Shown: positions 31,152-46,956, counted from the stretch's first letter. The stretch is 64,000 nucleotides of DNA from an uncultured bacterium (GCA_964499705.1 CAZCME010000010.1:22280-86279); one strand, 5' to 3'. Notes: a model not told the origin generated them from the letters alone. Program-made: numbers and translations.

Positions 31152-31314
31152 GGGGACATTCTCCAACATTACAACATTGAGATTGCTGCTACTTACGTGA
31201 GGTGGATGCCGGTTTCTTCGTAACATCATCATTTTGAATGTGGCAATGTGGGAGAATGTCCCCCTTACGTAAGTCCCTGTAATCTCAATGTTGGAATGTT
31301 GGAGAATGTCCCCT
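31152..31314. repeat. MITE-like / structured inverted-repeat element with GGGGACA...TGTCCCC termini
   Basis: 31152-31184 ggggacattctccaacattacaacattgagatt is the reverse complement of 31282-31314 with one mismatch in 33 bp. A third partial arm copy (gggagaatgtccccc) sits at 31249-31263, and an internal palindrome cttacgtaag is present. It lies between the giant gene's stop and the phosphohexomutase start. Confidence 0.6.
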
Positions 31315-31325
31315 ACTATTCCCCC

Positions 31326-32684
31326 ATGAAACTTCCGGATCATCCCAGGCTGAAATTCTCCGAAGCGGGCCTTCGCGGCGTCGTCGGCGAGACACTTTTG
31401 CCGCCGCTCATCTGCGGCATGTCGGCCGCCTTCGCGTCCACGCTCGGGCCGGGAGCGGTTGCGCTCGGGAGGGATACGCGGCTCTCGGGGCCGATGATAC
31501 TCGACCTGGTCGCGTCCTCGTTTCGAGCGGTCGGGCGGGATGTCATCGACCTCGGGATCTGTCCGGTGCCGACGGTGGAGTATTTCATCCGGACGGAGAA
31601 TCTGCCCGGCGGCATCGACGTCACGGCGTCGCACAATCCACCGGAATGGAATGCGCTGAAGCTGATCGGCGCCGGAGGATATTTTCTCGATCGAGCGGAA
31701 GCGATGGCGGTCAAGGCCGTGTACGAGTCGAGCTACGCGTGGTCGGCCTTCGACAGGCTGGGAAAACGCCGCGCCAACGATACCGCCATTCAGCGCCATA
31801 TCGACCGCATCCTCCAGGTCGTGGACGTGGACCTCATCCGGTCCCGGAAATTCACCGTCGCCCTGGATTGCGTCAACGGTTCCGGGTCCCTCATGACCCC
31901 TCAGCTCCTCGAAAAACTCGGCTGCAAGGTCGTCGCCATCCATGCCGACGCGTACTCCGACAAGCCGTTTCCGCATCCCGCGGAGCCGCGTCCGCATAAC
32001 CTCACCGACCTCATCAGGCTGACGAAGGACTCCGGAGCCGACATCGGATTCGCGCAGGATCCGGATGCCGACCGGCTCGCGTTGATCGCGGAAGGAGGCC
32101 GCGCGTTGTCGGAGGAATACACGCTTGTCCTCGCCGCCGAGCATGTGCTGTCGCACAAGCCGGGCCGCGCGGTCGTCGGAAACCTGTCCGGATCGCGGAT
32201 GCTGGACGACGCCGCGCAGCGCCACGGTTCTCCCGTTCACCGGACGGAAATCGGCGAGATCAACGTCTCCAAGAAGTTGCGCGAGGAGAAAGGGGCGATC
32301 GGCGGGGAGGGCAACGGCGGAGTCATGATCCCGGAGGTGCACGAGGGGCGCGATTCCTTCACGGGAATCGCCCTGATCCTGGAGATGATGGCGGAGCGCA
32401 GGAGTTCCGTGGGAACCATCGTGGACGGACTGCCGTCTTATTCGATGATGAAGTACCAGACCGAGATCGCTCCCGAGCGCGTGCAGGATGTCGTCGAAGC
32501 GGTCGCCTCGAAGATGGGCGCGGGAGCCTCCGGTGACCGCCGCGACGGCGTGAAGCTTTCCTGGAACGATCGATGGATTCATGTCAGGGGATCGAATACG
32601 GAGCCGATAATCAGGATCATGGCGGAGTCCCCGACGGAAAAAGAATCCCAGGCGCTCATTGACGCCGCGAAGGCCTTGATCTGA
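31326..32684 (+). CDS. Alpha-D-phosphohexomutase family (phosphoglucosamine mutase / phosphomannomutase-like)
   Basis: Active-site serine loop DVTASHNPPEWN. Four-domain length (452 aa). Metal-binding loop GFAQDPDADR. Start is ATG 31326 (MKLPDH). Confidence 0.8.
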   Translation: MKLPDHPRLKFSEAGLRGVVGETLLPPLICGMSAAFASTLGPGAVALGRDTRLSGPMILDLVASSFRAVGRDVIDLGICPVPTVEYFIRTENLPGGIDVTASHNPPEWNALKLIGAGGYFLDRAEAMAVKAVYESSYAWSAFDRLGKRRANDTAIQRHIDRILQVVDVDLIRSRKFTVALDCVNGSGSLMTPQLLEKLGCKVVAIHADAYSDKPFPHPAEPRPHNLTDLIRLTKDSGADIGFAQDPDADRLALIAEGGRALSEEYTLVLAAEHVLSHKPGRAVVGNLSGSRMLDDAAQRHGSPVHRTEIGEINVSKKLREEKGAIGGEGNGGVMIPEVHEGRDSFTGIALILEMMAERRSSVGTIVDGLPSYSMMKYQTEIAPERVQDVVEAVASKMGAGASGDRRDGVKLSWNDRWIHVRGSNTEPIIRIMAESPTEKESQALIDAAKALI

Positions 32685-32734
32685 TCCTCGCAGCTCTCAT
32701 CCTGTCCGCCTCGCTGCTCGGGCAAATCGCTCCC

Positions 32735-34051
32735 TTGGAAGGCGCGCGGCAGGCCGTGGCCCTGGAACAATGGGACACGGCTATTCCCATCCTGGAGGCA
32801 TTATCGGGTTCCTATCCCGAATCGGTGGAAGCGCGAGACCTGCTACTGTATGCGCTGCAGGCCCGGGCTCGAAGCCATCTTCTGCAGGGGAATCAGGGCC
32901 GGGCCATGCTGGACCTCGATCGAGCATACCAGATCGATCCGACCAGCAGGAATATCCGGCGCAATCTCATCTCCGTGTATGCGGCGGCGGCGCAAGCGCT
33001 CATCAAGGAAGGGGACACTGAAGGCGCCGAGCAGGCCTTTCGGAAAGCGCTCGACCTCGACACATCGCGCCGGGATATCCGTCGCGCTCTCGGTTCGACC
33101 ATCGTGGCGCGGGGGAAAGCCATGGAAGACGAGGGGCGATTTCTCGAGGCGTTGAATTTCTACAAGCGCGCATTGGATGTGGATTCGAACATGCTCGACG
33201 CTCATCTTCTCCGCGGTCAATTGTATTATTCCCGCGAAGAGTTCGAGCTCGCCCGTCATCACCTCCGTATCGCGCGCCAGATCGCCTCCACGAAGATCCA
33301 GGGGCTTGATGAGCTTCTTCAGCGCGTGGACAAGGAGTTCGAAGTCACCCGCAACTATCAGACGTATGAGATGGAAGGGTTCCTGGTCCGCTATGAGGGC
33401 GGCGCGCGGCCCGATCTCTTCTACCAAGTGCTGCCGATTCTTCGCGATGCCCGCGACCGGGCGACCCGTGTGCTGGAGAGAAGCGTGCACAGGCCCTTGA
33501 CGGTGATTCTCTATGCCGGTGAAGGTTTTCGCCGCGCCGCCGACGTGCCGGACTGGGCCGCGGGATTCTACGACGGAAAGATCCGCCTGCGAGAGGCGGA
33601 ACTGTCCGCGCCGACCGATTACCTGACGCGGATCATCCGGCACGAGGTGGCTCATGCCGTCATGGAAGAATTGGCGCCTCGCCGAGTGCCGGCGTGGATT
33701 CATGAAGGTGTCGCGAAATACATGGAGATCGACCGCTGGGACGCTCTGCAGGATGCCGCCTACCTTCTCCAGGCGATCCAGGCGCGACGGACGTTCAAGT
33801 TGACCGACCTGGAAAAGCCCTTCGCCAATCTCCCACCCGGATCCGATGTGCGGCTCGCCTATGCACAGTCGGCCGCAGCCATCCGTTATCTCGGCATCCA
33901 TCATGGGGATCGCGCTCTCTCGGACCTTGTCGCGCTACTCGCCGCCGGCCGGTCCGGCGAAAAAGCGATCGATTCCGTGACGTTCTACGACATGCCGACT
34001 TTCCAGAGCCGGGTCCAGGACTGGGTTGTGTGGGAGTATGCTCGGAAGTGA
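32735..34051 (+). CDS. TPR repeats + peptidase-MA-like (HExxH) domain protein; 5' end uncertain
   Basis: HExxH at IRHEVAHAVME with a downstream EGVAKY. The N-terminal half is TPR-like. The listed start is TTG. The in-frame upstream sequence LILAALILSASLLGQIAPL looks like a signal-peptide h-region, but it has no canonical start codon. Confidence 0.55.
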   Translation: MEGARQAVALEQWDTAIPILEALSGSYPESVEARDLLLYALQARARSHLLQGNQGRAMLDLDRAYQIDPTSRNIRRNLISVYAAAAQALIKEGDTEGAEQAFRKALDLDTSRRDIRRALGSTIVARGKAMEDEGRFLEALNFYKRALDVDSNMLDAHLLRGQLYYSREEFELARHHLRIARQIASTKIQGLDELLQRVDKEFEVTRNYQTYEMEGFLVRYEGGARPDLFYQVLPILRDARDRATRVLERSVHRPLTVILYAGEGFRRAADVPDWAAGFYDGKIRLREAELSAPTDYLTRIIRHEVAHAVMEELAPRRVPAWIHEGVAKYMEIDRWDALQDAAYLLQAIQARRTFKLTDLEKPFANLPPGSDVRLAYAQSAAAIRYLGIHHGDRALSDLVALLAAGRSGEKAIDSVTFYDMPTFQSRVQDWVVWEYARK

Positions 34052-34057
34052 TTAGAC

Positions 34058-34115
34058 ACCGATTTCACATTTCACATTCTCGATATAAATCTGGAATGTG
34101 AAATGTGAAATCGGT
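34058..34115. terminator. Bidirectional terminator hairpin between convergent genes (perfect 22-bp inverted repeat)
   Basis: accgatttcacatttcacattc (34058-34079) and gaatgtgaaatgtgaaatcggt (34094-34115) are exact reverse complements around a 14-nt loop. It lies between the + gene ending 34051 and the - gene ending 34121. Confidence 0.5.
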
Positions 34116-34120
34116 ATAGC

Positions 34121-35713
34121 TTACCGCGCAGCCGTGTCCGGAGCGGTTTCCATCTCCGGTATATTCCATGCCTGGTTGGCGACGATCGTTGCGAAAGTCT
34201 GGGGACCGGCGACTCCGTCGATGGGAAGCTTTTCCGCGGTTTGGAACTGGCGGACGGCCTTGACAGTCGTGGGGCCGTAGTTGCCGTTCACGACGCCTTT
34301 GAAATAGCGGAGTTTATACAGAGCATTCTGGAGCTTCGTGACATCCTCGCCGCTGGAACCCGCGTAATAGTTGCGGGTAGGAAAATCGGCGGGCATGATG
34401 AAGGAGGCTGGATAACTCCGATCCAGGGCGATCTGCGACCATGGAATCATCTCCTCCGCGGCGCCATGAACCACGATGGCGGAATCCGGGATGCCTTCCA
34501 CAGGCCGGACGACGGCCAGTTCCTCCCCGCCGATTCCCTTCAGGCGCACCATCGTACGGAGCCCGATCGCGGCGAGCACTTCCGGGCGGCAGGCGATCTG
34601 GATCCACTTTCTGTCGTTCGACGCGGCCAGCATGTCGGGGCGGATGGTCTCCAGCGCCGACGCGGTGAATCCGAGCTCGACTCCGTTTTCCTGAAAGAAT
34701 TTCCGCAGCATTTCGCCTTCGCCCGGTTTCTGCTCGATCACCTCACGGACGATCTGCTGTTGCGTGATGACGGGCGGGGGAGCCGACTCCGGCGCTTCCT
34801 CGCGGCCCGGGCGCTGCAGGAACATCCAGAGGACCAGCAGCAGCACGGCCCAGGCGCCGAGTGCAGGCATGAGTTTCACGAGGCGGACGCCAGTGGAGGG
34901 AGCGGGCGGCAGGATGTCGGCGAATTCCTTCTCGGCCGATTCCACGTGAACGCGTTTCACAACCTGGGAATCATCTCGGCCTGCCGCGCGCACGCTTCCG
35001 TCCGCCAGAATGTTGATGACGCGGGGAATGCCTCCGCTTTTCGCATGGATGCGTTTCACTCCGGCAGGGGAAAAAGACACGGGGACGGCGGCGCCGGCAT
35101 TGGCGAGCCGATGCGTGAGATACTCGCCTGTTTCCTTCAGCTCCAGGGGCTTCAGGTGGCGGTGAACCGCCACGCGGCTCCGAAGCTGAACCATTTCCGG
35201 GCGCGCCAGAATCTCGCGGAGCGGATCCTGGCCGAAGAGAATGATCTGGACGAGCTTCTCGCTCTCGGTCTCCAGGTTCGAAATCATCCGCAGGAGCTCG
35301 AAGGATTCGAAAGAAAGGTGCTGCGCCTCATCGATGAAAATGGCAGTGTGGCGTTTCTCGGAATACATCCGCATCAGGTGCTCATAGAGCGCATCGATGA
35401 GGCTCTTCCGGTCCTTCGCTTCGCCGGATGCAATGCCGAGATCGTCCGCGATGGCGCGCATGAGCCCGTCGGGATCGAGGCCGGTGTTCAGGATCGCGGC
35501 GGTATTGAGGTTTTCGTATTCGGCGGAGAGGAAGCTCCGCATCAGAGTCGTCTTTCCCGCTCCGACTTCACCGGTCACGACAATGAATCCCTTGCCGGTC
35601 ATGATGCCCCGTGTCAGGGCTTCCCAGGCTTCCTCGAATTGCTTGTGGCGATAGACCATCCTCGGATCGGGAGTGACGCCGAAAGGATTGTATTCGAAGC
35701 CGAAATCGATCAT
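34121..35713 (-). CDS. ExeA/GspA-like AAA ATPase with a C-terminal peptidoglycan-binding domain
   Basis: Walker A GEVGAGKTTLMRSF. A central TM segment. A C-terminal PG_binding_1-like motif DVTKLQNALYKLRYFKGVVNGNYGPTTVKAVRQFQ...GVAGPQTF. Confidence 0.75.
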   Translation of the reverse strand: MIDFGFEYNPFGVTPDPRMVYRHKQFEEAWEALTRGIMTGKGFIVVTGEVGAGKTTLMRSFLSAEYENLNTAAILNTGLDPDGLMRAIADDLGIASGEAKDRKSLIDALYEHLMRMYSEKRHTAIFIDEAQHLSFESFELLRMISNLETESEKLVQIILFGQDPLREILARPEMVQLRSRVAVHRHLKPLELKETGEYLTHRLANAGAAVPVSFSPAGVKRIHAKSGGIPRVINILADGSVRAAGRDDSQVVKRVHVESAEKEFADILPPAPSTGVRLVKLMPALGAWAVLLLVLWMFLQRPGREEAPESAPPPVITQQQIVREVIEQKPGEGEMLRKFFQENGVELGFTASALETIRPDMLAASNDRKWIQIACRPEVLAAIGLRTMVRLKGIGGEELAVVRPVEGIPDSAIVVHGAAEEMIPWSQIALDRSYPASFIMPADFPTRNYYAGSSGEDVTKLQNALYKLRYFKGVVNGNYGPTTVKAVRQFQTAEKLPIDGVAGPQTFATIVANQAWNIPEMETAPDTAAR

Positions 35714-35740
35714 TTTCCAGAGAATCTTTCCCGCCGCGCT

Positions 35741-36640
35741 CTAGCGCCGCGCACCCACCACCATGTCCTTCAGGTCCATGAATTCATCGGGCAGCAGATC
35801 CGAGTCGATGTTGAAAACGTCCAGCTCCGCGCCCTCTATGAGCCATTGTCCGCCTGTCTTCTTATACATGATCCGCCCCGCTCCGGCAAGCCTGATAGTG
35901 GGCACCAGACCGGTCCTGGGCGCCAAGTCCATGGCGAGAATGTAACGCGCGGAGATGTCCGTGGAGGAAGCCGACTGGAAATCGGTCAGCATCACTTCGC
36001 TTTTGCTGGACGACGTGACGCTCGATACCCGGTAGAGCAAATCCCTGAATTCACGGATGGTCCTGCCCGCGAATCGTCCGGACGGTGACGTGTAGGCCAG
36101 CGTGCCGTCGATGTCGAAAAACTCGAGCCGCCTGAGGGCCGCCCATGTGATGCGACCGAGCTCGGCCTTGTCGCGGGCCGAGACGGCGTCGGCTCCGCGA
36201 GTCGCGCCGCGCCATGTCAGAAGCTCGGCAGCCAACCGCAATAATTTTCCGCGCGCGGGACGCATGCGCTTATTCCGAGGAGCGGAGGCTCCTTCGTCCG
36301 CGTATTCCGCTTCCAATCCGGCCACCAGAACTTCGCCTGACAGCAGGACGATGGAACCCTGGGAAACGAAGAGCGTCGTTGTGGGATGAGCCGGCGAATC
36401 GGGTTGCTCCACTTGAGCGCGATGCAGGCGGCCCATCCGATCCGCAACGACAACCTCGCCAGGAACGGCTTCCGAGGAGCCGTGATCCGTTGTGACGGCA
36501 ACCCGCGATTTCGCCGGTTCCAGTTTTGTTCGCGCGGCCTGAACCGATGTTGCCGCAATCAGGAGAGCGATGACGAATGCAAAAAGACTACGAAAGGCAA
36601 GAACGTGTCTGGCGGGTGGATAGGACGTGCCAGGTTTCAT
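35741..36640 (-). CDS. Hypothetical secreted protein
   Basis: Signal peptide LFAFVIALLIAATSVQA. Start overlaps the upstream stop (ATGA). No recognisable domain. Confidence 0.45.
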   Translation of the reverse strand: MKPGTSYPPARHVLAFRSLFAFVIALLIAATSVQAARTKLEPAKSRVAVTTDHGSSEAVPGEVVVADRMGRLHRAQVEQPDSPAHPTTTLFVSQGSIVLLSGEVLVAGLEAEYADEGASAPRNKRMRPARGKLLRLAAELLTWRGATRGADAVSARDKAELGRITWAALRRLEFFDIDGTLAYTSPSGRFAGRTIREFRDLLYRVSSVTSSSKSEVMLTDFQSASSTDISARYILAMDLAPRTGLVPTIRLAGAGRIMYKKTGGQWLIEGAELDVFNIDSDLLPDEFMDLKDMVVGARR

Positions 36641-37161
36641 TTCGCCGCGTCGTCCTCCACGGAAAGCAGGAACTCCGTGCGGTGGGCTTCGAGGGGCGCG
36701 CAGCTCATGTTTGGAGAATGGACCGTGATGAGTCCCGTGTCGCCGTCGGAACCGGAAGCGGCCGACTCGAGGATGAAATAAGCCGAGCCTTCCTTGAGGA
36801 AGAGATCGAGCCCGGCGCGTGGACCGCGCTGGGCGGACAGAAACGACATGGCCGAAGCGGGTCCCAGCAGAACTTCCGCATAGCCCTCCACCGAAATGAC
36901 GGCGCGCGTCGTGGGTGACGTGCGTACGATTTCTCCGAGGGAGAGAACTTCGTCCTCCGAGGCGTCGCGGATTCCCAGAGGCGACGTCACCACCGCGTCA
37001 CCGTCGAGACGCGCGATGCGGATGACCAGGTCAGCGCTCTCAAAGGGCTCCACGCGAACGGGCGCGGAAACCGTCTGTTTCGGCGTCATCCTGTATAGAA
37101 AGAAGATCTGCGCCGCAATGAGGAGCAGAAGCAGGGCCGGTGTAAGAAGCTTCCGGATCAC
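36637..37161 (-). CDS. Hypothetical membrane-anchored protein
   Basis: The GTG start at 37159-37161 lies 4 nt after the Wzc-like gene's stop. An N-terminal TM (LLLLLIAAQIFFLY). The ORF-track start at 37236 would overlap the Wzc-like gene by 70 nt. Confidence 0.4.
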   Translation of the reverse strand: MIRKLLTPALLLLLIAAQIFFLYRMTPKQTVSAPVRVEPFESADLVIRIARLDGDAVVTSPLGIRDASEDEVLSLGEIVRTSPTTRAVISVEGYAEVLLGPASAMSFLSAQRGPRAGLDLFLKEGSAYFILESAASGSDGDTGLITVHSPNMSCAPLEAHRTEFLLSVEDDAAK

Positions 37162-37165
37162 GGGT

Positions 37166-39301
37166 TCAGAATCTCGAGCCTTCGTCTTCGTAGCGATAAT
37201 AGCTGTACTTATAGCCGTAGAACTGCCCGACGGCATTGGCGTCGTTCATCACGATGCCGATGATGTGGCCTCCGACGTCTTCGATCGTTCTGATGACGGA
37301 TGCCGCCGCGGCTTCCTCCGCTTTGCCGACCATGTACACGAAAAGAACTCCGTCGGCGATACGGGCCACATTCAGGGCGTCGGAGACGGGAGCGGTTGGC
37401 GGCACGTCCACTAGAACGAAGTCGTACTGGGTGAGCGTGTCCCTCAGCAGTTGCGCGAATTCGGGAGAAGAGAGAAGGGAGGCGACGTTCGCGGCTCCGC
37501 GCACGCCCGAGGGAAGAATGTCGAGGTTCTTGATGCGAGTGGGACAGGCCGCTTTCTTCCACTCCATGTCGCCGTTCATGACCTCGAAGATGCCGGGCGA
37601 TTCCGCGACCTCGAAGATCTTGTGAATCGTGGGACGGCGAAGATTGGCGGAAACCAGGAGAACTTTCCGTCCCATTTCCGCCAGTGCGGCGGAAAGGTTG
37701 GATGAGGTCGTGGATTTCCCCTCCTGCGGTTCGGTGCTCGTGATGACCAGCAACCGCTGCGGCCCCACGTCAATCTTATGAGCCAGCGCCCGATAGGCTT
37801 CGGCTTCCGCCGCATTCGGTCGGGTTTCCACCACGAGGCGCTCCGAAGCGACATCGGAATTACCGATGCCTCCGGTGAAATGAGGGATGATCCCGATTAC
37901 CCGGCGGCCTAGAAGCATCTCCGCGGATCCCGGAGTCTTGATCGACCGATCGAGCGATTCCACCAGCAGCACCATCGCGAACGCCACCATGACGCCGATG
38001 CCCGAACCGAGCCAGAACGAACGCGAAAGGTCGGGATTGTCCGGCGCGCTTGGGCGGATGGCCGGTCTCACCCACTGCGCCATGTTCTCCCGGCCGGATT
38101 GTTCCAGCTGGAGCTCCGTGCGCTTCTTCGTGAGTTCCGTCAGCAGGCTTTCCCGGACGGTGACTTCAGAGCGGTAACGAGCCAGCGACATCGGGTTGGG
38201 AGTTCCGGTTTCCATCGGAAGGAAAAGTTGCGCGACCGGAGTCGTGTCGACGGGAATCCCGCGCGGTATAGACGCTTCCCGCTCCGCAAGCTGCGCGTCG
38301 ACGGTCCGGCCCCAGAGTCCGATCTGCTGTATGAGGTCGATCGATGCCTCCATGAGCTGCTTGTGAGCCACCGCCTTGTCCGGGTGGAAATCCGTCAGGG
38401 TCTTGGCCACCTCACGATATTTCTTCGAGCGATCCTCCCAGACGGCGCGGGAGGAATTCATGCGGTCGAGCGCCGCGCCCTCCAGGCCCTGAGCTATGTC
38501 TTCCGGGATGGCGGCATGAATTCCGATAATCGCCATCTCCATGTCGTCAAGAGATGGAGCCTGGCCCGACGCGAGAGAATCGCTGACCTGGTTCAGCACC
38601 ATCATGCGCTCCCTCAGCATGCGTCGGGCGGCCGTGATCCTGGCGGCGGAAATCCCCACGTTCTCTTCCTTGCCCTGGTGACCCATGCGCCGTTCCAGTT
38701 CCGCGATGACGGCGCGGTAGTTGGCGATCTCCAGTTCCGTCTTCCTGATTTCCGCATCGAGAAACTTCACCATCCGCTGGGAGGAATAGACCATGTCCTC
38801 CACGAGCGAGGGCCCGAAGGACGCGCCAAACGCATTCGCCAGCGAATAGACATAGTCCGGATCGCCGCCGGCGACGCTGATGCGGACGATGCGGCGTTTT
38901 CCAAGTTGCTCCGCCGATGTGACGGCGGATATTTCCTCGAACATGTTCAGCCATTCGGGCGTCTTCTGCGGAGGAACTGTTCCCAGCACGCCCGTGCGGA
39001 TGACGGCGCCGATGCACCCTTCCGATTTCACATGGTTCACGTAATACGGGATATTGTTTTCGGCGCCGCTGCGAGGATCCGCCGGCGTGAAGATTCCCCG
39101 GGACATGATGGGTTCCGGAGCAATCGCGATGTCGATGAAGCAGGAGAAGTAACGGGGACGGTTGGTCTCGTGAAGAACGGCGGTTACGCACACGGAGAGC
39201 CAGGCGACCAGCGCCACGATCCAACGCTTCTTGAGGATTCTCCAGTAGTCGACCAGTCCGGGCGCGCGCTCCGTGGATTCGGCGGATCGTGGACTATTCA
39301 T
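37166..39301 (-). CDS. Polysaccharide co-polymerase / tyrosine autokinase (Wzc/GumC/CapB-like), exopolysaccharide transport family
   Basis: N-terminal Wzz-like domain with two TMs. C-terminal P-loop ATPase EGKSTTSSNLSAALA (Walker A) and a C-terminal Tyr-rich tail (YGYKYSYYRYE). Confidence 0.85.
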   Translation of the reverse strand: MNSPRSAESTERAPGLVDYWRILKKRWIVALVAWLSVCVTAVLHETNRPRYFSCFIDIAIAPEPIMSRGIFTPADPRSGAENNIPYYVNHVKSEGCIGAVIRTGVLGTVPPQKTPEWLNMFEEISAVTSAEQLGKRRIVRISVAGGDPDYVYSLANAFGASFGPSLVEDMVYSSQRMVKFLDAEIRKTELEIANYRAVIAELERRMGHQGKEENVGISAARITAARRMLRERMMVLNQVSDSLASGQAPSLDDMEMAIIGIHAAIPEDIAQGLEGAALDRMNSSRAVWEDRSKKYREVAKTLTDFHPDKAVAHKQLMEASIDLIQQIGLWGRTVDAQLAEREASIPRGIPVDTTPVAQLFLPMETGTPNPMSLARYRSEVTVRESLLTELTKKRTELQLEQSGRENMAQWVRPAIRPSAPDNPDLSRSFWLGSGIGVMVAFAMVLLVESLDRSIKTPGSAEMLLGRRVIGIIPHFTGGIGNSDVASERLVVETRPNAAEAEAYRALAHKIDVGPQRLLVITSTEPQEGKSTTSSNLSAALAEMGRKVLLVSANLRRPTIHKIFEVAESPGIFEVMNGDMEWKKAACPTRIKNLDILPSGVRGAANVASLLSSPEFAQLLRDTLTQYDFVLVDVPPTAPVSDALNVARIADGVLFVYMVGKAEEAAAASVIRTIEDVGGHIIGIVMNDANAVGQFYGYKYSYYRYEDEGSRF

Positions 39302-39322
39302 GGAGCGAGTGATTCAGGACGC

Positions 39323-40864
39323 TTACTGGTCTGAGCTCTTGAGATCATCCCCGACGGTTCCCACCTCGACGACCGTGCTGGCGGTGCCGTTCAAGGGGGC
39401 AAGGAGCTGATTCCAGAACGAGAGCGTGTAAGAGAGGATTCCCTGGGGTACGAAGACGACATCGCCGTTCTCCAGCATCATGTTCTGAGTAAGATCACCA
39501 TCCAACAGGCTCTTGATGCTGACCTTGTAAACCTTCGGATTATCCGGCCAACCGCGCACGACGCGGACGTCATACGTCCGGGCGTTGGCGGAGGAGATGT
39601 TGGCCATGGTGAGAGCCTGCAGAAGCGTGAAACTGCCCTGGCGGGTGTGCAGGCCGGGAGAACCAACCTGGCCCAGCACGAAGACTCCGATATCGGTGAT
39701 TTCGGGGATGATGATCGAATCGCCGTTGCGGAGCACCTTGTCCTCGCGCGCGTCGCCCTGGAACCAGAGCGCGTTGAGGTTGCAGGGCTCGATGGATCCG
39801 TCAGCCCGGAGAATGAAGGCCTTCGAGATGTGAGCTTTCGCTCCCCACGTGGATGATTCCAGGAGGAGATCGCGCACGCGGAGCGCGCGATTCATGGGAA
39901 AAACGTATTTTCCGGGCTTGGTGAAGGCGCCCAGGAGATTGACGACCTGCTCGCGGCTGGGAATGATCACGAGGTCGCCCGGCTCCACGTAGATATTTTC
40001 TTCGATGCGCTGGCCTTTCAGGACCGAGGCTATGTCGCACGTGATTTTCGAGTCGCCGCGGGAAACGGTCACATCGGAGAGATCCGCGCGATCTTTGCTC
40101 CATTTCGCCTGGACCAGGAGATCCAACAGGCGCGTGGGACGGTCGATGGTGAAGGGGCCCGGAGCTTCGACTTCACCCACGACCGTGACATCCTTACCGC
40201 CCGGTTCGGCCACGGTGACCGTGACGGCGGGCTGGATCAGGTAGCGCCGGAGCTTGCCGGCAATCGTGGCCGATGCCTGGTCGACAGTCAGGCCCGACAT
40301 CCGGATTGAACCGGCAAGCTTGACGACGATTGTGCCGTCCCGGGCCACTCGAGTCCGTGTGTTCAGATTGTCCTGTCCCCAGACGAAGACATCGAGAACG
40401 TCCCCGCTTCGGATGCGGTAAGCGTGAGGATCCACGGGCATGGAGTCTTCGTACGCGGGGGGAACTTCGGTGGGAAGCGGCGCCGCTTGATACGGTAGGT
40501 ATGGCGAATGAGCGACCAAGGGCGGAAGGGGATCGGGCGACATCTGAACTCGCTCTCGAATCGGGGCACCGGCCGGGAAGAGATCGCGCGGATCGATGAT
40601 GATCTCCCAGGGGCCCGGAGGCGCCGCATGCGACAGATCCTCGATCGGGGCGGCAGTGATGGGCGGCTCGGGTGTGGACGCCACGAACCGAAAGGTGTCG
40701 CGTGTGATTTGGGCGTTGGTGTCGACGTCAGGCAGTGAAGAAGTGCCCCAGGCGGCGGGGCTGACGAGCGCGGTCAGGGACTTTTTGACAGTGACTGTGT
40801 CGCAGAGAAGGATCAGAACCGCGATGGTCGCGGGCAACATCGGATTCTGAAACCATTTCCTCAT
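39323..40864 (-). CDS. Polysaccharide export outer-membrane protein (Wza-like; Poly_export + SLBB domains)
   Basis: YRIRSGDVLDVFVWG (Poly_export motif). Repeated SLBB-like soluble-ligand-binding beta-grasp segments. Signal peptide. 513 aa. Confidence 0.8.
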   Translation of the reverse strand: MRKWFQNPMLPATIAVLILLCDTVTVKKSLTALVSPAAWGTSSLPDVDTNAQITRDTFRFVASTPEPPITAAPIEDLSHAAPPGPWEIIIDPRDLFPAGAPIRERVQMSPDPLPPLVAHSPYLPYQAAPLPTEVPPAYEDSMPVDPHAYRIRSGDVLDVFVWGQDNLNTRTRVARDGTIVVKLAGSIRMSGLTVDQASATIAGKLRRYLIQPAVTVTVAEPGGKDVTVVGEVEAPGPFTIDRPTRLLDLLVQAKWSKDRADLSDVTVSRGDSKITCDIASVLKGQRIEENIYVEPGDLVIIPSREQVVNLLGAFTKPGKYVFPMNRALRVRDLLLESSTWGAKAHISKAFILRADGSIEPCNLNALWFQGDAREDKVLRNGDSIIIPEITDIGVFVLGQVGSPGLHTRQGSFTLLQALTMANISSANARTYDVRVVRGWPDNPKVYKVSIKSLLDGDLTQNMMLENGDVVFVPQGILSYTLSFWNQLLAPLNGTASTVVEVGTVGDDLKSSDQ

Positions 40865-41053
40865 GGGTGACCTGTCCCCCGTGCCCTTAATGCGAGTTCA
40901 CTTCTTTCAGCGTGTCCATCCCTGGCTCCTGCGTTCCGAAAAAGTATGTCGATGTAAATTATCCACAACTTATTCCATGCTGCAACTTCTGTCAATGCAA
41001 AAAGTTACGACTATTTCGGCATGTTTATTTTTGGAAGGAAATGAAAGGGCGGA

Positions 41054-41278
41054 TCAGCAGTCACCTACGGGAAAAGGCAGCGGATTTACTCCTTCGTTGC
41101 AGGTATTGGCCGCATCGCAGCCGATACACGCCGGTGTCCAGGACGTGGCAACCAGATCACAGACAAGCGAATTGCAGTCGACCTGGCAGAGCGAGCTGGA
41201 ATTGGAAGGCGATTGACCGTGATGGCCGATCGTGATTCTTTCGTAGCACGTCAGTGCCGGCTTCTTATAGAGCTTCAT
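41054..41278 (-). CDS. Candidate RiPP precursor peptide (74 aa, 8 Cys)
   Basis: MKLYKKPALTCYERITIGHHGQSPSNSSSLCQVDCNSLVCDLVATSWTPACIGCDAANTCNEGVNPLPFPVGDC. It sits immediately downstream of two radical-SAM/SPASM genes in the same orientation, overlapping the second by 14 nt. Its GC content is noticeably lower than that of its neighbours. Confidence 0.5.
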   Translation of the reverse strand: MKLYKKPALTCYERITIGHHGQSPSNSSSLCQVDCNSLVCDLVATSWTPACIGCDAANTCNEGVNPLPFPVGDC

Positions 41279-42311
41279 AGGGTCCCGGTTTGGATCCGTA
41301 AAGTGCCATGGTCACCAGGCATCGCTCCAGGGGAGGTTCATGGAACATTCCCGTGGCAGCGTGGCTGTGGCCGAGGCAGGTATGACAACGTGTGACATAT
41401 TGGCATCCGGAGCAACGACTGAAGCGGTCGTACTCGACGTCGTGGGGGATTGGATGCGAACCCTCCTCACGGGCATGGAGGGATTGCCACGTCTCGATCA
41501 GTCCTTCGCGGCGGACATGACCAATGGGTTTCCTGATGGTTACGCAGGTGAGTATCTCCCCGCGCGCCGTGACGGCGAGCGTGTTCATTCCCTGGGCGCA
41601 GATTTTAATCCCGCCCGTCCCGTTCTGGCTCGAGGGCAGTGTGGCCCCGGGCCATCGGGCTTCGACGAGGCGGATCTGTTCCGGTGTGAGAAAATCCCCG
41701 TCCAGATTCCGGCCGAGATCAGAGTTCATGAGGAAGTAATCCCTCTTCACGGAGCAATCCAGTTCCCCGGCGAGTGCTCGCATCGCTTCGAGTTCATGAA
41801 CGTTCCAGCGGAACAGTGTCACGGAAAGGGAGACCGGGATTTTTTTCGCGCGGACGGCTTTGATGCCCTCGATTGTCTTTTCGAAGGATCCGGCGATTCG
41901 CGTGCAACGCTCGTGCGTCGCGGCTGTCGCTCCGTAAAGAGAGACATCCATGTGCCCGACGCCCGCGTCGGCGAGCTGGAGCGCGAGCCTCTGGAGCAGG
42001 ATACCGTTGCTTTTCAGGGAGACGCACATCCGGAGGCGGCGGGCATGCCGGATGAGCGGCAGGAGACCCGGGAAGGTTGTCGCTTCGCCTCCCGTGAAAC
42101 AGACGGCGAATGTCTTGATCGCCGCGAGTTCATCCAGCACCCGGTGCCAATGCTCCTCCGTCATATCGTCCGCCGCATAATACGCCGGGCTTTCCCGCAC
42201 GCAGTGGACGCAGCCGTGATTGCATCGGTTCGTCAGTTCCAGGATGGCGACGGAGGGAGCGGGAAACTGGATGAATTTGCGGTTGAGCACCATGGGGTCG
42301 GCGCGATTCAT
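41265..42311 (-). CDS. Radical SAM / SPASM-domain peptide-modifying enzyme (paralog B)
   Basis: CNHGCVHC (the CxxxCxxC radical-SAM cluster motif). C-terminal SPASM cysteines CSGCQYVTRCHTCLGH. 348 aa. ATGA overlap with the upstream paralog. Confidence 0.85.
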   Translation of the reverse strand: MNRADPMVLNRKFIQFPAPSVAILELTNRCNHGCVHCVRESPAYYAADDMTEEHWHRVLDELAAIKTFAVCFTGGEATTFPGLLPLIRHARRLRMCVSLKSNGILLQRLALQLADAGVGHMDVSLYGATAATHERCTRIAGSFEKTIEGIKAVRAKKIPVSLSVTLFRWNVHELEAMRALAGELDCSVKRDYFLMNSDLGRNLDGDFLTPEQIRLVEARWPGATLPSSQNGTGGIKICAQGMNTLAVTARGEILTCVTIRKPIGHVRREGLIETWQSLHAREEGSHPIPHDVEYDRFSRCSGCQYVTRCHTCLGHSHAATGMFHEPPLERCLVTMALYGSKPGPYEAL

Positions 42312-43321
42312 GCCGTTGGAAATCCGTGGAGAGACATCATTGCATAGCAGCGTTCGAGCGGCGGCTCGTAAAATTCTCCGGTGGCTGCCTGGTTATGCCC
42401 CGGACAGACATGGCACTTCGGAAGGAAGTCGCACTTCAGGCAACGGGAAAACCGATCATAGTCCAGATTGTGCGGCCGGCCATTCTCCGTCGATCTTCTC
42501 CAGACGGCCGCCACGCCTTCGCCGCGAACATGACCCATGGGTTCGCGGATCGTGATGCAGGAAAGGATCTCTCCGCGCGCGGTGATCGCCATGCGATTGA
42601 TCCCCTGCGTGCAGAACCTCACTTTCGTGGATCCGTTCTGGTGCGAGGGAATTGTCATCATTGGCCACGATTGTTCGATGGCGCGGATCTGGGACGGGGT
42701 GCAGATATCCCCGGGCGTTCTTCCCAGGTCGGTGGTCGTCATGATGTATTCGCGATTGACGGAGCAGCCTGTCTCGGCGGCGAATTGCCGGATGGCATGC
42801 AACTCGTCGGCATTCCAACGGAAGAGCGAGATGTTGATCATGACGGCGATGCCCTCGGCTCGCGCGGCGCGGATGCCGGCCGTCGTGCGGGCGAACGATC
42901 CCGGCACGAGCGTGCATCGTTCGTGAGTCGCGGCCGTGGATCCGTACAGCGAGACGTCGATCAGGCCGACGCCATCCGCTTTCAGCGGCGAGGCCAGCCG
43001 GGACAAGTTCAGGCCGTTTGTCTTCAGTGCCACTCTCATATTCAGCTTTCTGGCGTAACGGATCAGGAGGAGCAGGTCGGGATGGAGCGTGGCTTCGCCG
43101 CCGGTGAAGCAGACCGTGAAGGTGTTGATGTCGGCGAGCTCATCGAGGACGCGAAGCCACTCCTCCGTCGTCAGTTCGTCGGTATGATGGAGACTGGGAC
43201 TTTCCCGGACACAGTGCGTGCAATCGAGATTGCACCGGTTGGTGAGCTCCAGCATGGCAGCCGTGGGAGTAGGTTTTCGCTGAAAAACCTGATTAACTTC
43301 CCCTGACGTGAGCTTGATCAC
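42308..43321 (-). CDS. Radical SAM / SPASM-domain peptide-modifying enzyme (paralog A)
   Basis: CNLDCTHC (the CxxxCxxC motif). SPASM tail CLKCDFLPKCHVCPGH. About 55% identical to paralog B along the full length. Confidence 0.85.
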   Translation of the reverse strand: MIKLTSGEVNQVFQRKPTPTAAMLELTNRCNLDCTHCVRESPSLHHTDELTTEEWLRVLDELADINTFTVCFTGGEATLHPDLLLLIRYARKLNMRVALKTNGLNLSRLASPLKADGVGLIDVSLYGSTAATHERCTLVPGSFARTTAGIRAARAEGIAVMINISLFRWNADELHAIRQFAAETGCSVNREYIMTTTDLGRTPGDICTPSQIRAIEQSWPMMTIPSHQNGSTKVRFCTQGINRMAITARGEILSCITIREPMGHVRGEGVAAVWRRSTENGRPHNLDYDRFSRCLKCDFLPKCHVCPGHNQAATGEFYEPPLERCYAMMSLHGFPTA

Positions 43322-43418
43322 GATCCCGATGGATTATTATATTCCCCTTTAAACTGGCGTGCGAGGGTTATGTAAGTAATTTACCAATCTTCAACGTACT
43401 AGGGGCTTTTACACAGGC

Positions 43419-44237
43419 ATGATAATCTGTCTTATCCTCATGTTTCCACTCCAGCTTGGAAAAACTGAATTTGAGATTTTTCTACCCGATGTCGTCATTT
43501 CCTCCATGTTGCCGGCCTACCTCCACTCCCTGCCCTGTGAAGAACTACCCCTCGTCGGTTCGCAAATACGAATGCACGCCATGGATGAAGCACCCGCGAC
43601 GGCGCTCGACGTGCCGGATCAATTCGGATTCTACCGGGCCAGATATCTCCGTTCCGGGAATTCCTGGGATTTTTTCACAAGCGTCCCACAGGGGCCGACC
43701 AAGCCGGATATTCTTCCGACCAGGTCCGTGACGCCCGCCGTGCTGACCGTTCTGGCTCACCAGGGAGTCCTCGCGATTCATGGTTCCGCTGTAATCCGTC
43801 ATGACAAGGCTCTGCTCTTCGTGGGGCCCAGCGGGAGCGGAAAATCCACGATGGCGGATCAGCTCTCAAGTTTCGGGTGTGAGTTTTTTTCCGAGGATAG
43901 AGTGCTTGTCTGGCGAACATCGGAAGGCATCATGGCGACTCCGTCGTTCGAAGCCGGTAATCCGTTCGGCCGGTGGGTCGGTTGTGTGCCCGAAACCGGA
44001 CGGCGGCCTCCGAAGCGGAGAACGCCTCCTTATGGCCGCGTGGCGCCTGCGGGGAAAGTTTATTTTCCGGAAGTGAGGCCCGGCGAGGAATCCTCCCGAT
44101 TCGCCCTTCCACGCCAGGAAGCATTCGTGCGATTGGCCGCGTCCACGATCGGCACATGGGATGCTCTGCCGGAAGGGATGGAAACGGAAGGGCTGATACT
44201 GGGGACAAATGCGGTGAAGCTGGCGGCTGAGCTTTAA
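43419..44237 (+). CDS. HPr kinase/phosphorylase C-terminal-domain-like P-loop protein (HprK-related kinase)
   Basis: GVLAIHGSAVIRHDKALLFVGPSGSGKSTMADQL matches the HprK C-terminal P-loop pattern (GxSGxGKS plus the preceding HG motif). It is divergent from the rSAM operon. Confidence 0.65.
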   Translation: MIICLILMFPLQLGKTEFEIFLPDVVISSMLPAYLHSLPCEELPLVGSQIRMHAMDEAPATALDVPDQFGFYRARYLRSGNSWDFFTSVPQGPTKPDILPTRSVTPAVLTVLAHQGVLAIHGSAVIRHDKALLFVGPSGSGKSTMADQLSSFGCEFFSEDRVLVWRTSEGIMATPSFEAGNPFGRWVGCVPETGRRPPKRRTPPYGRVAPAGKVYFPEVRPGEESSRFALPRQEAFVRLAASTIGTWDALPEGMETEGLILGTNAVKLAAEL

Positions 44238-45301
44238 GGATATTGCCCCGGAAAATCCAGACCTGCCGTTTCCGGAAGACCCATCATGATATTCAGGTTC
44301 TGGATCGCGTTGCCGGCCTGCCCCTTCATCAGGTTGTCGATGTGCGAGACGATGATCGCCTTCTTCGTCCGGGTATCGAGATTGATCCAGATGTTGACGT
44401 AGTTCGAACCCCGGACGTCGGATGTGGACGGAGCGGCGGACGGCGGCAGGATGCGGACGAACTTCTCGTTCTTATAGAAATCCTGGTAGCTTTCGACGAG
44501 GCTGTCCACGCATGTGACCCGTGTGCCGGCGTAGATCGTCGCGAGGATTCCTCTGGTCATCGGCGCCACATGAGGTGTGAATGTGATCGTGACCTCTTTT
44601 CCAGCCAGCCGCGACAATTCCCGTTCGACTTCGTAGACGTGCTGGTGGCCCGCGACCTTGTACGCGTTGAACGAATCGTATCGGGCGGGATAATGGAATC
44701 CGGGAGCGGGCTTCTTGCCGGCGCCCGAGACGCCGGACTTGCAGTCGCAGATGATGGATTCCGGATCGATGAGCGACCTCTGCACGGCGGGCGCGAGCCC
44801 GAGTATGCAGGCGATGGCGAAGCAACCCGGGTTGCCGACGAGCTTCGACTGCGCGATGGCGTTTCGATGGAGCTCGGGAATGCCGTACACGGTTCGGGAT
44901 AACAGCGCCGGCGCATCATGATCCGCCGGCTTGCCGATTCTCGTGGAGTATGCCGCGAAGTGGTTCTCCGAGGAGAACCGGAAGTCGCCGGAATAGTCGA
45001 TGACCTTGACGCCCTTTTCGATGAACCGGGCGGCGTGTTTCTGGCCGACGCCGTCGGGCGTGGAGAAGAGCGCGATATCGAGATTATCGCATACGGCAGG
45101 ATCTTCGAGCGAAGTGATGGGGAGGTCGCAATATCCCGCGAGATGGGGGTAAATGGCGGAGAGCGGCTTTCCGACTTCGGTCAGCGAAACGACGCGGACG
45201 ATCCGCGTGTAAGGATGCCTGAGCAGAAGTTCAATCGCCCCCACGCCGCCATATCCGCCTGCTCCGATGACGGCGACCCTGATTCCGGTTTCATCCTTCA
45301 T
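44234..45301 (-). CDS. argC: N-acetyl-gamma-glutamyl-phosphate reductase
   Basis: AVIGAGGYGG (NAD-binding motif). Active-site Cys in GCFAIACILGLAP. SGVSGAGKK. NLMKGQAGNAIQNLN. 355 aa. Confidence 0.85.
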   Translation of the reverse strand: MKDETGIRVAVIGAGGYGGVGAIELLLRHPYTRIVRVVSLTEVGKPLSAIYPHLAGYCDLPITSLEDPAVCDNLDIALFSTPDGVGQKHAARFIEKGVKVIDYSGDFRFSSENHFAAYSTRIGKPADHDAPALLSRTVYGIPELHRNAIAQSKLVGNPGCFAIACILGLAPAVQRSLIDPESIICDCKSGVSGAGKKPAPGFHYPARYDSFNAYKVAGHQHVYEVERELSRLAGKEVTITFTPHVAPMTRGILATIYAGTRVTCVDSLVESYQDFYKNEKFVRILPPSAAPSTSDVRGSNYVNIWINLDTRTKKAIIVSHIDNLMKGQAGNAIQNLNIMMGLPETAGLDFPGQYP

Positions 45302-45336
45302 ACATCATCCCTCATCCTTGATATAATGATGGCGCC

Positions 45337-46956
45337 ATGACGCCCCAGGAACTTGCAGAGCGGCTCCGCGTTTCGCCGCGAACCGGCTCGGCCGGGCCGC
45401 CCGACAGCGCCGGAGTATATATCTTCCGCGATGGAAGAAAACATCCCATTTACATCGGAAAGGCCCTGTCGCTCGCGGACAGGCTCTCCTCCTACCGCGC
45501 CTCCAACCTGCCCGACAAGACGGCGGCGATGATCGCGGCCGCGCGGAGCGTGGACTGGATCGTTTTCCAGACGGAGATGGAAGCGCTCTTGTGCGAAGCG
45601 GCGATGGTGCGGCAGTACAAGCCCAAGTACAACATCCTCCTGCGGGATGATAAACGATTTCCGATGATCCTCCTGACGGACGAGCCATACCCGAAGGCGT
45701 TGAAAGTGCGACGCGCCAGGAAGGGAGCCGGGCGCCACTTCGGTCCCTTCGGCGGTTCGACGGCGTTTCATCTCCTGGAGATCATATCCCGGAGGTTCAA
45801 GATCCGGCGCTGCGGAGGACCCCTGCCGAAGCGCGACAGACCCTGCATCGATCACGAGATCGGGCGGTGCGACGCGCCGTGCGTCGGTTCCATCGGCCGG
45901 GCGGAATACGGCATGCTCGTGGAGAGCGCCGCGCATCTGCTCGCGGGGGATGTTCGCGCGTTGGCGCGCGAACTGGAGGAGGAGATGCGCCATGCTTCTT
46001 CGGAGAAGCAATTCGAGAAAGCCGCGTCGCTTCGGGATGAAGTCGCCGCGCTGAAAAGCGTCCTGGAGAAACAGAACGCGGAGAAGCCGGGCCGCGATGA
46101 CGCGGACGCCGTTGCCGTGGAAATCGGCGATTCGTTCGCGGTAGGCGTGGTTCTCTCGCGAAGAAACGGCGCCGTGGTGGATCGGGCTGCGTATGTGTTC
46201 GAGACTCCCATCGAGACCGATGCGGATGAAATCCTTGCGAAGACGGCGTCGGCTCATTATGAGCAACACGCGGCGCCGCCGGAAATCCTCGTGCCGAAAC
46301 CGGTGTCGATGCCGGGTCGCGTTTATCGAGTGCCGATGCGCGGTCCCGATGCCGCGCTTTTGAAACTGGCCGATGACAACGCGCGCGAGACACTGCGGGA
46401 TGTCTCCGGGGCGCGCGGTTCCGAGGTCAGGAACCGCGCGCTCGTCGAACTGGCGGAGGCGCTCGGCATGGAGAATGCTCCGCGCACGATCGAGGGGATC
46501 GACATCGCGACCTTCGCCGGGAAGGACACCGTCGGGGCCTGCGTTCATTTTCATGACGCTCTGCCCCGGAAGGCCGGCTATCGGCTCTTTCGGATCCGCG
46601 GCCGCCAGGACAGCGACGTCGACGCGATCGAGGAAGTGATGGCGCGTAGAATGCACCTGAAGGAACCGTGGCCGGATCTCTTTCTCATCGACGGCGGAAT
46701 GGGACAGCTTCTGGCCGCGTTCCGCGCCCTGGAGGAATCGGCGAGGGAACGAGGGATCGTGGCGCCGGCGATCGTCTCGCTCGAAAAACGCGACGAGCTG
46801 ATTCGAACGGTGGAAGGGGAGGTGATCGAGCTGCCTCGGCACGCGGCGGCGTTGAAGCTCCTGCAGCATGTCCGCGACGAAGCGCACCGGTTCGGAGGAA
46901 ATTATCACCGGAAGATTCGCGGAAGCTCAGGCGGACTGGCTCGAACGTCGCGTTAA
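45337..46956 (+). CDS. uvrC: Excinuclease ABC subunit C
   Basis: N-terminal GIY-YIG (GVYIFRD...IYIGKA). A central Cys-rich segment. UvrB-interacting and C-terminal RNaseH-like/HhH regions. 539 aa. Confidence 0.85.
   Translation: MTPQELAERLRVSPRTGSAGPPDSAGVYIFRDGRKHPIYIGKALSLADRLSSYRASNLPDKTAAMIAAARSVDWIVFQTEMEALLCEAAMVRQYKPKYNILLRDDKRFPMILLTDEPYPKALKVRRARKGAGRHFGPFGGSTAFHLLEIISRRFKIRRCGGPLPKRDRPCIDHEIGRCDAPCVGSIGRAEYGMLVESAAHLLAGDVRALARELEEEMRHASSEKQFEKAASLRDEVAALKSVLEKQNAEKPGRDDADAVAVEIGDSFAVGVVLSRRNGAVVDRAAYVFETPIETDADEILAKTASAHYEQHAAPPEILVPKPVSMPGRVYRVPMRGPDAALLKLADDNARETLRDVSGARGSEVRNRALVELAEALGMENAPRTIEGIDIATFAGKDTVGACVHFHDALPRKAGYRLFRIRGRQDSDVDAIEEVMARRMHLKEPWPDLFLIDGGMGQLLAAFRALEESARERGIVAPAIVSLEKRDELIRTVEGEVIELPRHAAALKLLQHVRDEAHRFGGNYHRKIRGSSGGLARTSR

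Follow-up and report, generated by a model that had tools for sequence, protein, structure and literature searches.

A conserved cysteine-rich peptide gene behind tandem radical SAM/SPASM enzymes of an uncultured bacterium, a putative precursor of a cross-linked peptide

Radical S-adenosylmethionine (rSAM) enzymes with a SPASM domain are a main route to new peptide chemistry, and the assignment of their substrates is the bottleneck. Among the described systems, the closest functional analogues of the one reported here are the SCIFFs and ranthipeptides (CteA–CteB, Tte1186a and freyrasin, PapA–PapB), which share with it the same minimal set of a Cys-rich precursor and an rSAM/SPASM maturase. Ranthipeptide thioethers join Cys to Thr in Tte1186a and CteA, to Asp in freyrasin and to Asn in NxxcA (PMC8326336), and SCIFFs are widespread among Clostridia, which has been taken as an argument against an antibiotic role (PMC8326336). 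Here we analyse a 64,000-nucleotide stretch of DNA from an uncultured bacterium (GCA_964499705.1, CAZCME010000010.1:22280-86279; hereafter the window), in which a small open reading frame (ORF) with eight Cys codons closes a row of three genes, behind two rSAM/SPASM enzymes. We are highly confident, on comparative sequence evidence, that this ORF is a genuine rSAM-linked peptide gene, and by analogy with described systems it is probably an rSAM/SPASM precursor, with a leader that would be recognised and a core that would be cross-linked, most likely by thioethers. The three genes are:

41054–41278, minus strand: putative precursor peptide gene, 74 amino acids plus stop codon (from translation, homologues and codon comparison)
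41265–42311, minus strand: rSAM/SPASM enzyme 2 (rSAM2), 348 amino acids, peptide-proximal, with Pfam Radical_SAM and SPASM matches
42308–43321, minus strand: rSAM/SPASM enzyme 1 (rSAM1), 337 amino acids from a GTG at 43321, with Pfam Radical_SAM and SPASM matches, a paralogue of rSAM2

Retranslation of 41054–41278 gives MKLYKKPALTCYERITIGHHGQSPSNSSSLCQVDCNSLVCDLVATSWTPACIGCDAANTCNEGVNPLPFPVGDC followed by a stop codon, and returns the 74 residues and the eight Cys positions (11, 31, 35, 40, 51, 54, 60 and 74) of the original prediction; a stretch SPSNSSS begins at residue 23. The three same-strand genes are tightly packed: rSAM1 and rSAM2 overlap by 4 nt, and the small ORF shares its first 14 nt with the end of the rSAM2 ORF, stop codon included. 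Upstream of the peptide ORF there is no other in-frame start codon, and the Shine–Dalgarno sequence before it in the window, GGGA, is weak. Of the 132 window ORFs of 60–100 amino acids in all six frames, this one has the most Cys, eight. The earlier claim that such a count is improbable by chance holds, with a binomial P of 7e-7 at 0.97% Cys, the frequency in 14 large window ORFs taken as genes, and of 4e-4 at 2.4% Cys, the frequency over all window ORFs of that size range.

A word-indexed search with the window peptide alone matched only itself, as an identical sequence in three independent Hainich groundwater assemblies; its relatives were reached only via the neighbouring rSAM gene, and then by profile. 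With rSAM2 as the query, a compact subfamily of about 16 proteins (49–68% identity) is recovered, and in every case the contig carries a called small ORF of 75–94 amino acids directly after the rSAM gene, with a translation that can be clearly aligned to the window peptide. Among 5.8 billion cluster representatives, a profile search found 13 peptide members; exhaustive scanning of 1.84 billion representatives with HMMER yielded just four more, two close and two distant. The peptide family is genuine, though very rare: its distinct sequences number about 20 in some 15 billion public proteins. Profile searches of all members against Pfam, NCBIfam and PDB gave nothing meaningful, and no relevant literature on the family was found. 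Two related loci, L011 and L020, are labelled Candidatus Hydrogenedentes/Hydrogenedentota in genome and metagenome scans; the rSAM protein of L020 (P0013) has the accession RMH59082.1, on the metagenome-assembled genome contig RFFU01000028.1.

Codon comparison across seven loci shows that third-position changes dominate the differences: the proportion of synonymous differences (pS) is 0.43–0.88, largely saturated, that of non-synonymous differences (pN) is 0.19–0.41, and dN/dS is 0.09–0.34, a clear sequence signature of purifying selection on the encoded protein. Ribosome-binding sites of the GGAGG type precede the peptide ORF in L005, L007, L008 and L012, and in L008 a 95-nt gap separates it from the rSAM gene. 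Because of the dN/dS values, these Shine–Dalgarno sequences and the L008 gap, both a spurious ORF and a frameshifted larger gene are excluded. The original prediction had named these two dangers, a lack of any conserved ORF at orthologous loci and a larger gene broken by a frameshift; what those loci contain is a conserved small ORF at this very position, a separate gene with its own starts, and this strongly supports the proposal of a real precursor-like gene that closes an rSAM operon on its 3′ side. Two features of the window could still be read as signs of a spurious ORF, or of an artefact of assembly or frameshift where the rSAM gene ends, namely the weak Shine–Dalgarno sequence and a composition (GC 0.551, 0.64 at third codon positions, GC3) below that of the neighbours (GC 0.60–0.61, GC3 0.72–0.76). 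Against them stand the identity of the sequence in three independent assemblies, some 20 homologues with dN/dS well below 1, and relatives with separate start codons and strong Shine–Dalgarno sequences; we regard an artefact as already refuted by the assemblies, the homologues and the codon analysis, and give it next to no chance. The protein-level conservation on the minus strand likewise rules out, as the coding unit here, the plus-strand ORFs 40863–41216 and 40912–41235 or a frameshifted larger gene.

The family peptide ORF stands directly after an rSAM gene at 11 related loci, a count that takes in every one with enough upstream sequence; on the 555-bp contig of L019, only a 61-residue upstream fragment without a Pfam match is visible. 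Most loci show an overlap of 4–17 nt between the end of the rSAM gene and the peptide start. Together with the window, these loci represent at least four genomic contexts:

flgG–recR–(NHL)–rSAM (one or two)–peptide–GYF_2–glnD–lactamase_B: L004, L005, L007, L008, L011, L012, L022, L023 and L024
rSAM–peptide–ABC ATPase: L020
competence/Wzy/YceG/methyltransferase block facing rSAM–peptide–TlyA-like: L021
uvrC–argC–ScmC-like–rSAM1–rSAM2–peptide–wza–wzc: the window

No accessory gene, be it for a RiPP recognition element (RRE; RiPP, ribosomally synthesized peptide with post-translational modification), a protease or a transporter, is common to these contexts, and the ScmC-like, GYF_2, NHL and ABC ATPase genes and the small ORFs of L020 and L021 show no homology across them. 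Only the rSAM gene and the peptide gene are constant. The pair travels as a unit: the peptide gene is genuine and conserved, evolves under purifying selection and is found in strict linkage with one uncurated rSAM/SPASM subfamily. It shows two marks of an rSAM-modified RiPP, conserved linkage to an rSAM/SPASM gene across genomes and a partner enzyme with a CxxxCxxC motif and a seven-Cys SPASM domain.

At L020 (2348–3349), a distant variant peptide, P0050, with ‘YGS’ for ‘YER’ and a different Cys spacing, follows the rSAM gene and is in turn followed by a DrrA-like ABC transporter ATPase; no other family locus was seen to have an export-type gene. At every recR-type locus, the gene directly after the peptide gene, sometimes only 4–8 nt away, encodes a transmembrane protein with GYF_2 and B-box-like zinc-finger domains (for example L022:3633–4316 and L008:7426–8331), a protein absent from the 64-kb window; it may be tied to the peptide in function or only syntenic, like recR and glnD. 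L023 (ERZ1292641, Hain_H51 contig 3221) holds a second family member, P0047, of 71 amino acids, in the canonical recR–NHL–rSAM–peptide–GYF_2–glnD context; it comes from the same Hainich H51 sample series as the window cassette, at similar coverage, and could belong to another organism or be a second cassette of the same genome.

Column counts over the 18 close family members divide the peptide into two parts, for which we infer leader and core roles:

41213–41278, minus strand: putative leader, residues 1–22 (Y4-K6-P7-L9-Y12-E13-R14-G18), from conservation; the boundary with the core is approximate
41057–41212, minus strand: putative core, residues 23–74, from column counts and composition

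Fourteen positions are invariant in 18/18 members (Y4, P7, L9, Y12, G18, S23, C31, Q32, C35, C40, C51, C54, D55 and C60), and K/R6, E13, R14, N26, L42, T45, P50 and G63 are nearly so. The core is marked by S23, N26, C31-Q32-x-D34-C35, C40-x-L42-x-x-T45, C51-x-x-C54-D55, C60 and a C-terminal Cys. Position 34 is Asp in 15 members and Asn in 3, and T45 is kept in 17 of the 18, the remaining one having Asp, another known ranthipeptide acceptor type. The leader region has no conserved Cys, nor do the N-terminal 30 residues as a whole, which are as conserved as the Cys-rich C-terminal part; the C-terminal half is acidic. Across 13 members the lengths are 70–94 amino acids and the Cys counts 7–12. 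The division proposed in the original prediction, an N-terminal leader before a Cys-rich core, roughly fits this pattern; the hallmark of the leader is Y-x-x-P-x-L-x-x-Y and not its lysines, of which there are three in 20 residues, and K6 (K/R) is the only one kept in relatives. Cys11, which that prediction had placed with the other Cys, is Cys in 11 of the 18 members and Ser in 7, and we dropped it as a functional residue. In actinobacterial lasso peptides, YxxPxL is the leader motif that binds the RRE (PMC6784204), and the leaders of another RiPP family, LPP, carry a related RRE-binding motif (PMC13381572). No identifiable leader cleavage site or protease was found.

Within the family, the window peptide diverges most (38–51% identity), with a GQ insertion after residue 20 and HH in place of YY at positions 19–20. 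AlphaFold2 with the family alignment, a shallow input of 13 sequences, predicts no structure for it (mean predicted local distance difference test score 38.5). The peptide is thus predicted to be disordered, as expected of a precursor rather than of a folded mini-protein.

The canonical CxxxCxxC motif (C30/C34/C37 in rSAM2) and the seven Cys of the SPASM domain (C238, C256, C300-x2-C303-x5-C309-x2-C312 and C331) are conserved in 16 family members, and the SPASM Cys fit two auxiliary clusters. rSAM1 and rSAM2 share 57% identity by BLASTP and 62% in a MAFFT alignment. In a neighbour-joining tree, L004_a is placed with rSAM1 of the window and L004_b with rSAM2, from which it follows that the window and L004 share the tandem duplication and that it is older than the relocation of the window cassette. 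Metagenome gene calls start rSAM1 at an ATG at 43255 (315 amino acids, P0011), which cuts off its conserved N terminus; the 22 extra residues align with the family consensus (..N.xFxRxPTPTxAxLELTNRCN), so the start is probably the GTG at 43321.

All NCBIfam matches of both enzymes lie far below the cut-offs, the best being ScmE, AhbD, NirJ2, TIGR04053 and PqqE. By sequence, SkfB (E 6e-15) and PqqE are the nearest relatives of solved structure. An AlphaFold2 model of rSAM2 (predicted template modelling score 0.79) has PqqE, BlsE, SkfB, MoaA, EpeE, SuiB, anSME and CteB as nearest folds, with CteB (5why) at Foldseek rank 36 and 16% identity. In the model comparison, the nearest folds are mostly SPASM/twitch rSAM enzymes, many of them peptide-modifying, and would indicate no one specific chemistry. 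The nearest sequence families were set aside for the same purpose: the matches to AhbD, NirJ, ScmE, PqqE and SkfB cover the generic rSAM core and do not resolve the reaction.

Taken together with the linkage, we propose that the product of the ORF is a ribosomally made peptide on which the two upstream enzymes act as their substrate. It would be translated from the same mRNA, probably in a manner coupled to the termination of rSAM2 translation. Residues from 1 to about 22–30 (Y4-x-x-P7-x-L9-x-x-Y12...G18) would serve as the recognition leader, read either directly or by an RRE encoded elsewhere, and the acidic core from about residue 23–31 onward would offer six invariant Cys and the C-terminal Cys. 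Using a 5′-deoxyadenosyl radical and the auxiliary Fe–S clusters of the SPASM domain, the enzyme or enzymes would introduce intramolecular cross-links into this core, the likeliest being thioethers from Cys sulfur to carbon on D/N34, T45 and D55, giving a polycyclic peptide of the sactipeptide or ranthipeptide type. One rSAM enzyme and one peptide would form the minimal functional unit, and tandem enzyme copies, as in the window and L004, may split the cross-links between them.

Thioethers are favoured because the conservation of the core falls on Cys and on neighbouring Asp, Asn and Thr. Candidate linkage motifs, offered as speculation, are C31-x2-D/N34, C40-x4-T45 and C51-x3-D55; the C-x4-T spacing of the second is that of Cys32–Thr37, the link first reported for CteA (PMC8326336). 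By this analogy, the chance that the peptide is thioether-cross-linked is about even. A true rSAM substrate with another modification is a less probable outcome, unlikely in our estimate and yet to be taken seriously: epimerisation as by EpeE/YydG, C–C or C–O cross-links, or an oxidation of Cys to formylglycine as by anSME, with the Cys residues serving later in disulfides or metal binding. The neighbours in fold and sequence include PqqE and SuiB (both C–C), EpeE (an epimerase) and anSME, no NCBIfam thioether-maturase family is reached, and the invariant Tyr4, Tyr12 and Gln32 could be other sites of radical chemistry. Speaking for thioethers instead, the strongest conservation in the core is that of six Cys and adjacent Asp, Thr and Asn, which match known thioether donors and acceptors (PMC8326336), and conserved aromatic residues, as needed for cyclophane or C–C links, are almost missing from the core.

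Several observations weigh against a thioether-bearing precursor. The chemistry is argued by analogy, and the enzyme sequences are no closer to thioether synthases than to AhbD/NirJ/ScmE/PqqE-type cores. A precursor gene downstream of its enzyme gene, with translational coupling, is atypical for RiPPs. No RRE or PqqD domain is detected in the enzymes, in which there is no room for one because the rSAM motif starts at residue 30 of proteins of about 350 amino acids, and this sits uneasily with the RRE-type YxxPxL of the leader; nor is there intergenic room for a separate RRE gene, the gaps measuring 97 and 189 bp in the window and, from recR to rSAM in L005, 86 bp. The related loci show no protease gene, and L020 alone has a transporter component, the ABC ATPase. 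The window peptide itself lacks the penultimate Cys of the family (‘D-C-F-P’), has a 2-residue insertion and could be a drifting copy, and the shallow alignment given to AlphaFold2 tempers the predicted disorder.

Some of these points would suit a different role, in which the peptide is not a substrate at all and acts as a small Cys-rich metal- or Fe–S-binding partner of the enzyme, an electron carrier or chaperone made at about 1:1 through translational coupling. In favour of this are the place of the peptide gene, downstream of the enzyme and with an overlap over the enzyme's stop codon, the CxxxC and CxxC spacings of the peptide, its conserved acidic residues, and the fact that no related locus shows a protease or, apart from L020, an ABC ATPase. 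We consider such a partner improbable. The peptide is predicted to be fully disordered and has no ferredoxin, rubredoxin or zinc-ribbon match in Pfam, NCBIfam or PDB; its N-terminal 30 residues are equally conserved and carry the leader-type YxxPxL; and the enzymes, judging by their seven-Cys SPASM domains, already have two auxiliary clusters of their own.

A substrate precursor also has to be set beside QhpC, on which QhpD makes Cys–Asp/Glu thioethers (PMC10114670). That pair serves the maturation of the γ-subunit of quinohaemoprotein amine dehydrogenase (QHNDH). The likeness is that an rSAM/SPASM enzyme gene is directly followed by one for a small polypeptide containing Cys and Asp. The order of qhpD and qhpC presumably resembles the rSAM-then-peptide order here. 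A QhpC-like subunit would be a cross-linked small polypeptide built into a larger enzyme complex or cofactor rather than a free peptide; its Cys and Asp pairs, the strong conservation of both peptide halves and the housekeeping position (recR/glnD), without an export gene, of the locus in most genomes would fit. No dehydrogenase subunits or other conserved partner genes occur in any context, the neighbours being argC, the HprK-like gene, wza and wzc in the window and recR, GYF_2 and glnD elsewhere. No genes for QHNDH subunits, a protease or a transporter lie nearby, there is no sequence similarity, and no member has a convincing Pfam or NCBIfam match, hence none to a QhpC model if those libraries hold one. 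We think this arrangement very improbable, and continue with the cross-linked precursor as the preferred reading.

Measured against SCIFFs and ranthipeptides, that precursor shows both likeness and distance. The Asp, Asn and Thr near its Cys match the non-α thioether acceptors of ranthipeptides, leader and core are both conserved, and most loci lie in a conserved housekeeping region (recR/glnD) without a dedicated protease or transporter. A CQxxC-type spacing is shared with SCIFF sequences. The SCIFF peptide model describes about 45 amino acids with six C-terminal Cys, whereas the present peptides have 70–94 amino acids, 7–12 Cys and another spacing, and none of the 13 members matches any NCBIfam peptide family at E <= 10. 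No SCIFF maturase is among the 25 best NCBIfam families of the enzymes, which also lack the N-terminal RRE of that family. The gene order differs too, in that the precursor gene follows and overlaps the enzyme gene, and the two organism-labelled loci are from Hydrogenedentota, not Clostridia. The resemblance to SCIFFs and ranthipeptides drawn in the original prediction thus fails for membership of the SCIFF family, of peptide and enzymes alike, and survives as an analogy that makes thioether-type chemistry plausible.

By NCBIfam names, the window layout of an HprK-like gene with two rSAM/SPASM genes mirrors the SynChlorMet (ScmC/ScmE/ScmF) and GeoRSP cassettes, and ScmE is the best NCBIfam match of rSAM2. 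To our knowledge, no precursor has been assigned to either cassette. The scores of the two enzymes fall far short of membership: 117.8 and 107.1 bits for ScmE and 60.0 and 65.8 for ScmF, each against a cut-off of 400, and 77.8 and 73.0 for GeoRSP_rSAM, also against 400. The HprK-like gene reaches 16.2 bits of the 125 needed for ScmC and 38.3 of the 200 for HprK_rel_B; between 41054 and 44237 there is neither an ORF nor intergenic space for a PqqD-like ScmD; and the ScmC-like gene is absent from every related locus.

The sactipeptide maturases (SkfB, AlbA and StsB) also place thioethers on Cys-containing precursors, and SkfB is the solved structure nearest in sequence. In place of a complete SPASM domain, SkfB carries a twitch domain. 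These maturases carry an N-terminal RRE (residues 1 to about 100 of SkfB are unmatched by the enzymes here), and the scores of the present enzymes for their families are far below the cut-offs. With lasso peptides, the likeness is confined to the leader, where the same Y-x-x-P-x-L is invariant (PMC6784204; for LPP, PMC13381572); no RRE/PqqD (B1), B2-protease or Asn-synthetase-like cyclase gene is found in ten nearby window ORFs or among the neighbouring genes of relatives.

The system is best described as a new and rare precursor/maturase family within a known kind, the rSAM/SPASM-modified Cys-rich peptides, and introduces no new principle. More specifically, and tentatively, it may be an undescribed RiPP family of uncultured bacteria (Hydrogenedentota where labelled), in which a 70–94-residue precursor with a lasso-like leader would be turned by a compact, RRE-less maturase into a polycyclic, acidic, multi-thioether peptide. 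In most lineages the pair belongs to the conserved core genome, as a neighbour of recR/glnD, and this speaks for a role in physiology (signalling, redox or metal handling) and not for an antibiotic one. The value of the assignment lies in giving an uncurated rSAM/SPASM subfamily its substrate with strong comparative evidence, and in a minimal system of one enzyme and one peptide, with no RRE and no protease, that is directly testable by co-expression. It also poses a puzzle of recognition, an RRE-type YxxPxL leader facing an enzyme without an RRE, and the tandem duplicate of the window and L004 is a natural experiment on how cross-linking work may be divided. The HprK-like/two-rSAM layout of the window may further help to find substrates for the precursor-less SynChlorMet and GeoRSP cassettes.

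Around the cassette, the window contains the following features:

43419–44237, plus strand (divergent): P-loop protein resembling HprK-related kinases and ScmC (NCBIfam, Pfam)
43322–43418: AT-rich divergent intergenic region between rSAM1 and the ScmC-like gene, GC 0.423
40865–41053: AT-rich spacer from the peptide stop codon to the Wza-like start, 189 bp, GC 0.455
39323–40864, minus strand: Wza-like exporter, downstream, in an exopolysaccharide locus
37166–39301: Wzc-like tyrosine kinase, downstream, in the same exopolysaccharide locus

The HprK-like gene matches HprK_rel_B at E 8e-10 and ScmC at E 0.005, and its precomputed Pfam match to PF27840 (ScmC) is weak. It was found only at the window locus: tblastn did not detect it in eight related loci, and the gene lists of L020–L024 do not contain it; it is a possible accessory of the system, with uncertain membership. 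Its composition (GC 0.578, GC3 0.62) is close to that of the peptide ORF. The original prediction had read the AT-richness of the peptide gene and of the roughly 190 bp downstream as a compositional anomaly. The slightly lower GC and GC3 of the ORF make this weakly true for the gene; the spacer 40865–41053 is ordinary intergenic DNA, not anomalous because the other spacer of the locus, 43322–43418, is poorer still in GC. The argument carries no weight, and we dropped it.

The divergent region 43322–43418 is probably the promoter region of the operon; sigma-70-like matches within it are weak and do not exceed the shuffle expectation, and the same holds for promoter and terminator counts. No intrinsic terminator is predicted on the minus strand after the peptide gene, and an Rfam scan of the window matched no RNA family. 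Upstream of the Wza-like gene, on the minus strand at 40930–40990, lies a TTGACA-17 nt-TAAGTT element that the consensus scan did not report; it is a possible promoter of the exopolysaccharide operon, and would then make the peptide gene the last one of its own transcription unit.

The exopolysaccharide-type set at 31248–40864 comprises the Wza-like exporter, the Wzc-like tyrosine autokinase, two ORFs of no assigned function, an AAA_22 and PG_binding (ExeA-like) ATPase, a TPR and peptidase_MA protein and a PGM/PMM; its best NCBIfam names are of the XrtA/PEP-CTERM-system types, below the cut-offs. On the far side of the cassette, long antisense ORFs overlap, 45298–46908 on the minus strand against 45337–46956 on the plus strand. 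The latter is UvrC, by Pfam matches on the identical gene in L001; the 536-residue minus-strand ORF has no family match and is probably a shadow ORF of GC-rich DNA. Two adjacent paralogous giant ORFs on the plus strand, 19208–25030 and 25105–31149 (1940 and 2014 amino acids), contain Sortilin/BNR, fn3 and NosD/right-handed β-helix domains, and from these domains they probably encode large surface or secreted proteins.

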